From Candidatus Rokuibacteriota bacterium (GTDB lineage: Bacteria; Methylomirabilota; Methylomirabilia; Rokubacteriales; JACPHL01), in the NCBI GenBank assembly GCA_016188625.1, contig JACPHL010000115.1, positions 1 to 33,153 on the forward strand: DNA of 33,153 nucleotides. Direction: 5' to 3'. Below are positions 26,155-29,100 of this stretch, piece by piece. The position numbers and the translations under genes are program-made. Within the stretch, counting starts at the first letter, position 1. The number at the start of each line of letters is the position of its first letter. The notes under the pieces were generated by a model. That model was given only the letters and a program-made list of their open reading frames with translations, was not told where the DNA came from and searched no databases.

Positions 26155-29100
26155 GTGCCTAAACGGACGGATCTGCGGAAGATCCTGATCATCGGCTCCG
26201 GGCCGATCGTGATCGGGCAGGCGTGCGAGTTCGACTACTCGGGGACCCAGGCGTGCAAGGCCCTCCGCGAGGAGGGTTACCAGGTCGTCCTGGTGAACTC
26301 GAACCCCGCCACGATCATGACCGACCCCGAGATGGCCGACCGGACCTACCTCGAGCCGCTGACCCCTGACATGGTCACGAAGGTCATCGCCCGCGAGCGC
26401 CCCGAGGCCCTGCTCCCCACGCTCGGCGGCCAGACCGGCCTGAACCTCGCCGTGGCCCTCGCCGAGGCGGGGGTCCTCGACCGCTACGGGGTCGAGCTGA
26501 TCGGGGCCACCCTCGAGGCGATCCGGAAGGCCGAGGACCGCGAGCGCTTCAAGACGGCGATGGAGCGGATCGGCCTCGCCCTCCCCCGCTCCGGCTACGT
26601 CAGCTCGATCGAGGAGGCGCGCGAGATCGTCCAGCGCCTGGGCTACCCGGTCATCATCCGCCCCTCCTTCACCCTCGGCGGCACCGGCGGGTCCATCGCC
26701 TACAACCCCGAGGAGCTGGACGAGTGCGTCCGCTGGGGGCTCCAGCAGAGCCCGGTGGGGCGGGTCCTGGTGGAGGAGTCGGTCATCGGCTGGAAGGAGT
26801 TCGAGCTGGAGGTGATGCGGGACCTGGCCGACAACGTGGTGGTCGTCTGCTCCATCGAGAACTTCGATCCGATGGGGATCCACACCGGCGACTCGGTCAC
26901 CGTGGCCCCGGCCCAGACCCTCACCGACAAGGAGTACCAGCTCATGCGCGACGCCGCGGCCGCGATCATCCGCGAGATCGGCGTCGAGACCGGCGGCTCC
27001 AACAGCCAGTTCGCGGTGAACCCGCGCGACGGCCGCCTGGTCGTCATCGAGATGAACCCGCGGGTCAGCCGCTCCTCGGCCCTGGCCTCCAAGGCCACCG
27101 GCTTCCCCATCGCCAAGATCGCGGCGAAGCTCGCGGTCGGCTACACCATGGACGAGCTCCGGAACGACATCACCCGCGAGACCCCGGCCTCCTTCGAGCC
27201 GACCATCGACTACGTGGTCGTCAAGGTGCCGCGCTGGGCCTTCGAGAAGTTCCCCGAGGCCGACCCGCGCCTGGGCACCCAGATGAAGTCGGTCGGCGAG
27301 GTGATGGCCATCGGGCGGACCTTCAAGGAGGCGCTCCAGAAGGCCCTCCGCTCGCTCGAGCAGGAGTGGTGGGGGCTCGCCCTGGACCCACCGGTCGCCG
27401 ACCTGGAGGCGATCCGCGACCGGCTCCGGGTCCCCACCGCCGAGCGGCTGCCGTGGCTTGCCGAGGCCCTCCGCCGCGGCCTCGCCCTCGAGGAGATCCA
27501 CGCCCTGACCCGGATCGACCCCTGGTTCCTCGGCCAGATCGCCGAGCTGGTCGCCTTCGAGGAGGCCTTCCGCGCCCAGCCCGACCTCTCGGCCGCGACC
27601 CTCCGCCGCGCCAAGCGGCTGGGGTTCGCCGACCACGAGCTGGCCCGGCTGGCCGGCCGGACCGAGGCGGAGATCCGCGCGGCCCGGCTTGCCCACGGGA
27701 TCCGGGCGACCTACAAGATGGTGGACACCTGCGCCGCCGAGTTCGAGGCCTACACCCCCTACCTCTACGGGACCTACGAGGAGGAGGACGAGGCGTCCCC
27801 GACCGAGCGCCCCAAGGTCGTCATCCTCGGCTCGGGGCCGAACCGGATCGGCCAGGGGATCGAGTTCGACTACGCCTGCGTCCACGCCGCCTTCGCCCTC
27901 CGGGAGCTCGGGGTCGAGGCGATCATGGTCAACTGCAACCCCGAGACCGTCTCCACCGACTACGACACCTCGGACCGCCTCTACTTCGAGCCGCTCACCC
28001 TGGAGGACGTGCTGAACATCGTGGAGAAGGAGCGGCCCCTCGGGGTCATCGTCCAGTTCGGGGGGCAGACCCCCCTCAAGCTCGCGGTCCCCCTCGAGCG
28101 CGCCGGGGTCCGGATCCTCGGGACCCCGCCCGACGCCATCGACCGGGCCGAGGACCGCCCGCTCCCTCGACGAGGCCGCCGGGGTCGCCGCCCGGATCGG
28201 CTACCCGATCCTCGTCCGCCCCTCCTACGTCCTGGGCGGCCGGGCGATGGAGATCATCTACGAGGAGGAGCGGCTCCGGGGCTGGATGGCCGAGGCGGCG
28301 CGGGTCTCGCCCGAGCACCCGGTCCTCATCGACAAGTTCCTCGAGAATGCCATCGAGATCGACGTGGATGCGCTCGCGGACGGGGAGGACGTGGTCATCG
28401 GCGGGGTCATGGAGCACATCGAGAAGGCGGGGATCCACTCGGGCGATTCCGCCTGCGCCCTGCCCCCCTACTCCCTCACCGACGAGCAGGTGGTCGAGCT
28501 GAAGGCGGCCACGGTCGCCCTGGCGCGGGAGCTCGGCGTCGTCGGGCTCCTCAACGTCCAGTTCGCCATCCGGAACGAGACCGTCTACGTCCTCGAGGTC
28601 AACCCCCGGGCCTCCCGGACGGTCCCGTTCGTCTCCAAGGCGATCGGGCTGCCGCTGGCCAAGCTCGCCACCCAGGTGATGCTCGGCCGGCGCCTGGCCG
28701 GCCTCGTCCCCGGCCCCCTGGCGGAGCCGGGCCACATCGCGGTGAAGGAGGCCGTCTTCCCCTTCGCCAAGTTCCCGGGGGTGGACGCGGTGCTCGGGCC
28801 GGAGATGAAGTCCACGGGCGAGGTCATGGGGATCGACCGCGACTTCCGGCGGGCCTACGTGAAGTCCCAGCTCGCCGCCGGCTCGCCCCTCCCGACCCGG
28901 GGCAAGGTCTTCCTCTCGGTGAGGAACCGGGACAAGCGGTCCGTGGTCACCCTCGCCCGCCGCCTCGCCGCGCTCGGGTTCGACCTCGTCGCCACCCAGG
29001 GGACCGCCAAGGTCCTGGCCCTCCACGGGATGCGGGTCGAGGTCATCCACAAGGTGGCCGAGGGGTGGCGGCCGAACATCGTGGACCTCATGAAGCGGGG

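Follow-up and report, generated by a model that had tools for sequence, protein, structure and literature searches.

The question raised by this locus is whether a carB gene that is read as one open frame of 1,070 codons can be broken all the same, and whether such a break belongs to the organism or to its assembly. The window, the whole stretch of 33,153 nucleotides analyzed here, is the complete contig C240 of a metagenome-assembled genome (MAG) of the Candidatus Rokuibacteriota (G000: 2.6 Mb, 344 contigs, 84% complete, 2% contaminated, 72% G+C). The names of its homologs place it in the Rokubacteria/Methylomirabilota. This MAG appears to represent its species in the genome collection that was searched, from which no relative at the genus or family level was returned. 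The gap of 59 nt in carB is, with a probability of roughly 0.78, an error introduced locally when this low-quality, scaffold-level MAG was assembled and not a feature of the organism.

An intact CarB is a single chain of about 1,070 amino acids with two ATP-grasp units (CPSase_L_D1/D2), an oligomerization domain, and an MGS-like C terminus, and this complete set of domains is present in P0003 from an intact relative. The called ORF of the window has the expected length but is CarB for two-thirds only, followed by nonsense; it possesses a single CPSase_L_D2 domain and no MGS domain. Frame 1 encodes genuine CarB up to the motif AIDRAEDR and continues as an Arg/Pro/Gly-rich sequence, while CarB is picked up again in frame 2 and remains free of stop codons until its own end (Table 1). 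The frame-2 piece matches positions 26 to 209 of the CPSase_L_D2 profile as well as the MGS domain, and differs from P0003 in one of its 380 residues. Compared to E. coli CarB (PDB 1bxr), about 20 residues are absent between AEDR and the GYP motif, with the break at residue 668 within the second ATP-grasp domain. The locus is carB as judged by its sequence, and as assembled it would not encode a complete CarB. Translations and Pfam confirmed the frame boundaries given by the sequence-only reading, and its anatomy, an out-of-frame deletion within the second ATP-grasp domain that is masked by a long ORF and removes about 20 codons, was right. The tail in frame 1 stays open because a deletion with a length of 2 mod 3 turns the G/C-rich third codon position into the first base, which makes stop codons rare.

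Table 1. Features of the carB region in the window and of other lesions in the same MAG (contig numbers are given for positions outside the window)
Feature	Position	Strand	Evidence	Profile positions of the two halves (NCBIfam)
carA, small subunit, intact, upstream of carB	24062..25186	+	ORF list; synteny with L064	
carB, N-terminal 668 codons: first ATP-grasp half, oligomerization domain, pre-ATP-grasp part of the second half	26155..28158	+	Translation; Pfam (CPSase_L_D1 twice, CPSase_L_D2 128-334, CPSase_L_D3 423-499)	
22-nt stretch GGCCGAGGACCGCGAGCGCTTC, AEDRERF codons of the first half	26529..26550	+	Exact-match search	
Deletion junction, 7-nt direct repeat GGACCGC of which one copy is left	28152..28158	+	Alignment with L019-L022; flanks match exactly up to 28158 and from 28152 onward	
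Nonsense tail of the 1,070-aa ORF, frame 1 through the shifted gene, no Pfam domain	28159..29367	+	ORF list; Pfam	
carB, C-terminal 380 codons plus stop, frame 2: remaining second ATP-grasp, MGS-like allosteric domain, intact	28160..29302	+	Translation; Pfam	
pyrF, OMP decarboxylase, intact, overlaps the true carB stop as in relatives	29289..30002	+	ORF list; exact protein on L080-L082	
alaS, deletion site	C274:~5165			440-616, then 638-834
topA, deletion site	C201:~7099			190-395, then 445-631
dnaX, deletion site	C243:~5504			
Antiporter subunit, deletion site	C76:~6167-6181			
lhr, deletion site	C1:~3838			
rsmB, deletion site	C42:~5947			
relA/spoT				1-141, then 151-347
tsaD				1-99, then 104-303
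dapA-like				4-101, then 129-284
leuA				270-404, then 410-503
lpdA				131-329, then 360-453
Cu-ATPase				1-121, then 137-311
Malate synthase				2-89, then 130-324
Fdh-alpha				94-286, then 302-493
Tandem duplication	C18:~1695-1741 (reverse-strand coordinate)			
Tandem duplication	C209:~3278-3349			
Tandem duplication	C228:~2483-2555			

The gene is part of a pyrimidine operon in the order pyrR-pyrB-pyrC-carA-[cassette]-carB-pyrF-pyrE. According to the ORF list, carA, pyrB, pyrC, pyrF, and pyrE appear to be full-length and open. Neither downstream of the break nor in these partner genes was further decay found in the form of stop codons, indels, or relaxed substitutions, although a very recent deletion would equally leave no decay. 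Between carA and carB (window 25471 to 26154), the cassette site differs from one relative to another. L022 is without the cassette, and its carB start matches the upstream stub of the window at 95%; L064 carries MNT plus HEPN at this site, and L019 a different set of small ORFs. The sequence-only reading had hinted at a link of the lesion to this neighboring insertion, which found no support since carB is intact with a cassette (L019, L064) and without one (L022).

In a DNA alignment, exactly 59 nt are absent from the window that all 11 order-level relatives carry. These 59 nt are also carried by four metagenome contigs of near-identical sequence that stem from other samples, namely an ENA contig (L019), contigs from two JGI samples (L020, L021), and one from a further JGI sample (L022); the first three were reached through a protein search (P0003, P0004), and L022 was added by a DNA pattern scan. 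The estimate of about 59 nt made from the letters alone thus proved exact. Around the break, these four contigs are identical to the window at about 99.4% or better, and all of them carry GGACCGCGAGCGCTTCTCGGCCCTCCTCCGGAAGCTCGGCCTGGCCCAGCCGCCGTGCG, which encodes ERFSALLRKLGLAQPPCGTA in an intact CarB of 1,068 amino acids (the length of P0003). No mismatch was found within 250 nt of the junction, leaving clean flanks on both sides. The overall identity to the window is about 99.4% for L020 to L022, and L019 is near-identical from about position 27000 on. Over 7 kb, window and L022 differ by 39 mismatches and two indels, the 59 nt in carB and 21 nt in an intergenic region. The latter indel concerns position 31033 of the window, where GGGGTCCCCCGGCTCGCCGCG of L022 is absent; the site is located within an intergenic hairpin element.

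The near-identical contigs show a further pattern upstream of the break. Between L019 and the window, the first third of carB (5' end) together with the spacer ahead of it (window 25934 to 26900) has diverged by 12 to 24%, compared to an identity of about 99.7% in the rest of the gene, and position 26755 of the window is exactly where the JGI contigs L020 and L021 both start. These observations point to a boundary that is either recombinant or variable between strains.

The carB gene is likewise intact in P0243 and in the more distant MAG contig L064, so that the lesion is absent from all independently assembled near-identical sequences (L019 to L022 and P0243). No other assembly contained the deletion allele in a metagenome pattern scan or in exact look-ups of the 1,070-aa ORF and the adjacent pyrF; these searches returned intact alleles or contigs ending short of the site and nothing else. 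Exact look-ups of two neighboring proteins gave no match. The missing 59-mer was not found elsewhere in the MAG by an exact-match search. A second carB, which the sequence-only reading had recommended looking for, was searched for across the MAG and was not found. None of the relatives compared shared the short junction in a single frame; according to the same reading, such sharing would have refuted a break.

The junction itself needs to be evaluated with care. The intact alleles L019 to L022 contain two copies of GGACCGC at a distance of 59 nt, with 52 nt between them, and these copies enclose GGACCGCGAGCGCTTCTCGGCCCTCCTCCGGAAGCTCGGCCTGGCCCAGCCGCCGTGCG. The window retains a single copy; the sequence as assembled is GAGGACCGCCCGCTCC, with the join point at GAGGACCGC|CCGCTCC. 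Flanking direct repeats of which one copy is kept are what a slipped-strand or microhomology-mediated deletion leaves behind. A simulation on the genome of the MAG gave a probability of 8e-4 for a microhomology of at least 7 nt at random junctions. The six other junctions in the MAG that were characterized at the DNA level display 0, 0, 0, 1, 1, and 2 nt, which is the level of random junctions, so that the carB junction does not resemble the other erroneous junctions in this respect. No hairpin or unusual fold that might promote slippage was found in the deleted segment (z = -0.18, intact segment).

A second repeat is present at the same place. The 22-nt stretch from the first half of carB listed in Table 1 has a second, exact copy in the intact alleles, at the left border of the missing segment, and the left breakpoint falls within this repeat common to both halves of the gene, which is likely to have been a branch point in the assembly graph. 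The break in topA likewise adjoins a 20-mer that is repeated elsewhere, while repeated 20-mers cover only 5.5% of the positions of the MAG. Much of these 5.5% is due to an interspersed element about 180 nt long that is seen at L023:3313-3532 and in many copies on about 70 contigs of the MAG, with an identity of 82 to 98%.

Evaluation of the carB lesion also has to consider the condition of the remaining MAG. All contigs were scanned for same-strand changes of the coding frame, as deduced from the G+C content at the third codon position (GC3), that occurred without a stop codon in the upstream frame. The scan flagged 46 of 1,166 same-strand frame changes, carB among them, and 41 of these 46 are of the frame +1 class, corresponding to a deletion length of 2 mod 3. 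The number of 46 should be regarded as a minimum, because only this out-of-frame class (2 mod 3) is visible to the scan and the other class soon runs into stop codons. Two breaks that remained unflagged are a proteasome alpha subunit present as two ORFs of 88 and 106 amino acids (C93:19570-20259) and an acetolactate synthase large subunit with a nonsense end (C117:11521-12081). As control, 398 kb drawn from seven further MAGs of this order yielded no flag among 183 frame changes. In the first control, a relative assembled into 8 contigs (G027), 7 of 197 were flagged, but most were small frameshifts of the 1-nt type without a loss of residues, which suggests uncorrected long-read indel errors. 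In its region C6:1000001-1400000 (L024 to L043), such small frameshifts are clear in biotin carboxylase and guaA and probable in formate dehydrogenase and a P450 fusion.

Ten flagged sites were tested by scoring the halves separately against NCBIfam profiles, and in all ten both halves belong to one family, are in different frames, and leave a gap in the profile positions between them (Table 1); these sites were hand-picked as clear cases, and the result is not a rate for all 46. Five genes (alaS, topA, tsaD, relA, and the dapA-like gene) were checked for their copy number, and each of them occurs once in the MAG. Compared to near-identical contigs of other samples, the MAG lacks 53 nt in alaS, 140 nt in topA, 77 nt in dnaX, 164 nt in the gene for an antiporter subunit, 50 nt in lhr, and 80 nt in rsmB. 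The same assembly contains therefore many comparable lesions, some of them in essential single-copy genes. Since no cell with broken alaS, topA, dnaX, and tsaD would be viable, these MAG-wide lesions are local assembly errors, and we infer that the carB lesion belongs to the same class.

Deletions outnumbered duplications at the flagged sites by about 39 to 3, and four sites contain runs of Ns. The ratio is a poor fit to a symmetric error of gap estimation during scaffolding. The three duplications, with lengths of 47, 70, and 76 nt, are out-of-frame tandem repeats within genes. One of them, the 70-nt repeat in the gene for methylmalonyl-CoA mutase, is perfect, and the other two are 93 to 96% identical. 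They look like contig overlaps that were not merged. In the window, an 81-nt tandem duplication of 1.8 copies with 98% identity (14997 to 15145) may be an assembly artifact as well, given these other unmerged overlaps. The MAG contains 20 N runs with a length of 1 to 81 N. Those at C187:6287-6302 (16 N) and C270:3025-3032 (8 N) are flanked on both sides by identical sequences of 20 and 17 nt, respectively, and in ffh (C42:7671-7695), 25 N stand for 24 real nucleotides and shift the frame. Insertion of Ns despite an overlap is an error type reported for IDBA-UD and CLC scaffolds (PMC7111523). A scaffolder that left overlaps of 17 to 20 nt unmerged is not expected to have joined contigs on 7 nt, so that overlap-based joining fails to explain the repeat at the carB junction. 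As a general mechanism, overlap-based contig merging was rejected in view of these unmerged overlaps and of the 0 to 2 nt at the other junctions.

The following scenario explains the data best. The real gene would be an ordinary carB for a 1,068-aa large subunit of carbamoyl-phosphate synthetase within the pyrimidine operon. Two pieces of it may have been joined during assembly or scaffolding with a loss of 59 nt. Because 59 is 2 mod 3 and the G+C content is 72%, the old frame stays open, and gene callers report a plausible 1,070-aa protein. Misassembly is most likely in view of the intact near-identical alleles, the lesions throughout the MAG, the unmerged overlaps, the 22-nt repeat at the left breakpoint, and the absence of decay in frame 2. 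The perfect 7-nt direct repeat with its chance of 8e-4 and the clean flanks count against it. Where the sequence-only reading had left open a pseudogene or an assembly or consensus error, the intact contigs and the dozens of lesions favor the error, and the pseudogene is the less supported half of that alternative, albeit with the 7-nt repeat on its side.

Alternatively, the window may contain a real, very recent deletion allele of a strain or subpopulation, generated by slippage or microhomology-mediated loss between the GGACCGC copies. This is improbable but deserves attention, because the bounding repeat with one copy retained is the classic slipped-strand signature, is rarely met by chance, and stands apart from the 0 to 2 nt of the six other lesions, again between clean flanks. 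Such a CarB-null cell would need an outside supply of arginine and pyrimidines, or would have to obtain its carbamoyl phosphate through carbamate kinase. An arcC gene on C245 (1017 to 1943, minus strand) scores above the TIGR00746 cut-off, and its predicted product might be another supplier of carbamoyl phosphate; with a carbamate kinase encoded in the MAG, a cell could conceivably do without CarB. That a natural strain of the Rokubacteria has just lost carB by slippage at the 7-nt repeat and now lives on arginine and pyrimidines of its community, or on carbamoyl phosphate from carbamate kinase, is slightly less probable still. The base rate speaks against a real allele: at least 46 frame breaks in the MAG, of which the tested ones were false, stand against one real large deletion, or perhaps a few, in a genome, so that false deletions exceed plausible real ones by about 100:1. 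Moreover, the junction is seen in no independent assembly of the lineage, every near-identical strain being intact; there is no decay downstream, the other genes of the operon were seen intact, and the coincidence of the left breakpoint with the 22-nt internal repeat fits a graph break.

Two further explanations are far weaker. Programmed recoding, by a +1 frameshift or ribosomal bypass, might yield a functional, shorter CarB, and both frames are indeed open across the junction. This sole point is outweighed by the 20 conserved residues that would still be missing where the second ATP-grasp domain begins, the presence of the 59 nt in frame in near-identical strains, the lack of an unusual fold in the intact segment, and equivalent breaks in dozens of unrelated genes, so that recoding is effectively refuted. 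A natural split of carB into two polypeptides, which the sequence-only reading had dismissed on good grounds and which has nothing beyond the two frames in its favor, is just as implausible, with a break inside the second half instead of the half boundary near residue 550, a first piece without a stop codon, a first frame-2 ATG only at 28247 within the ATP-grasp domain, and single chains of about 1,067 to 1,078 amino acids for all those among the 120 matches listed that were not cut at a contig end.

Three known systems can be compared with the lesion. In Aquifex aeolicus and Methanocaldococcus jannaschii, carB is naturally split between the homologous halves, and each piece has its start and its stop. 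The window shares with them a CarB sequence distributed over two frames or ORFs, but the break falls within the second ATP-grasp domain, with a loss of residues and no translation signals. Deletions between short direct repeats by strand slippage are reportedly known from the classic deletion spectra of E. coli lacI. The carB lesion resembles them in the loss of one 7-nt repeat copy together with the intervening 52 nt; unlike the lacI deletions, it is known from an assembly alone, within a MAG full of demonstrably false deletions. Local assembly errors are described for MAGs scaffolded from short reads (Chen, Anantharaman, Shaiber, Eren, and Banfield 2020, Genome Res; PMC7111523), and the lesion resembles them in that the consensus of the MAG is contradicted by near-identical assemblies, coding genes are corrupted, errors are numerous in one genome, and N runs occur despite overlapping flanks (C187, C270). 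The microhomology of 7 nt remains the difference between carB and the other junctions examined in this MAG.

Most likely, the break in carB has no counterpart in the organism. The finding is a warning that assembly lesions with a length of 2 mod 3 in genomes with a high G+C content can result in a deposited full-length protein of which one-third is nonsense. Metabolic reconstruction, counts of pseudogenes, or the deduction of auxotrophies based on this MAG would be wrong, with alaS, topA, dnaX, tsaD, relA, and leuA all being hit, and the MAG and its 1,070-aa “CarB” are unfit for inference of function without curation at the read level. Should the lesion be real after all, it would be a modest case of a very recent loss of a biosynthetic gene, and this would mean a fresh step of gene loss of the Black Queen type, caught in an organism whose genome is small although its phylum is otherwise noted for large ones.
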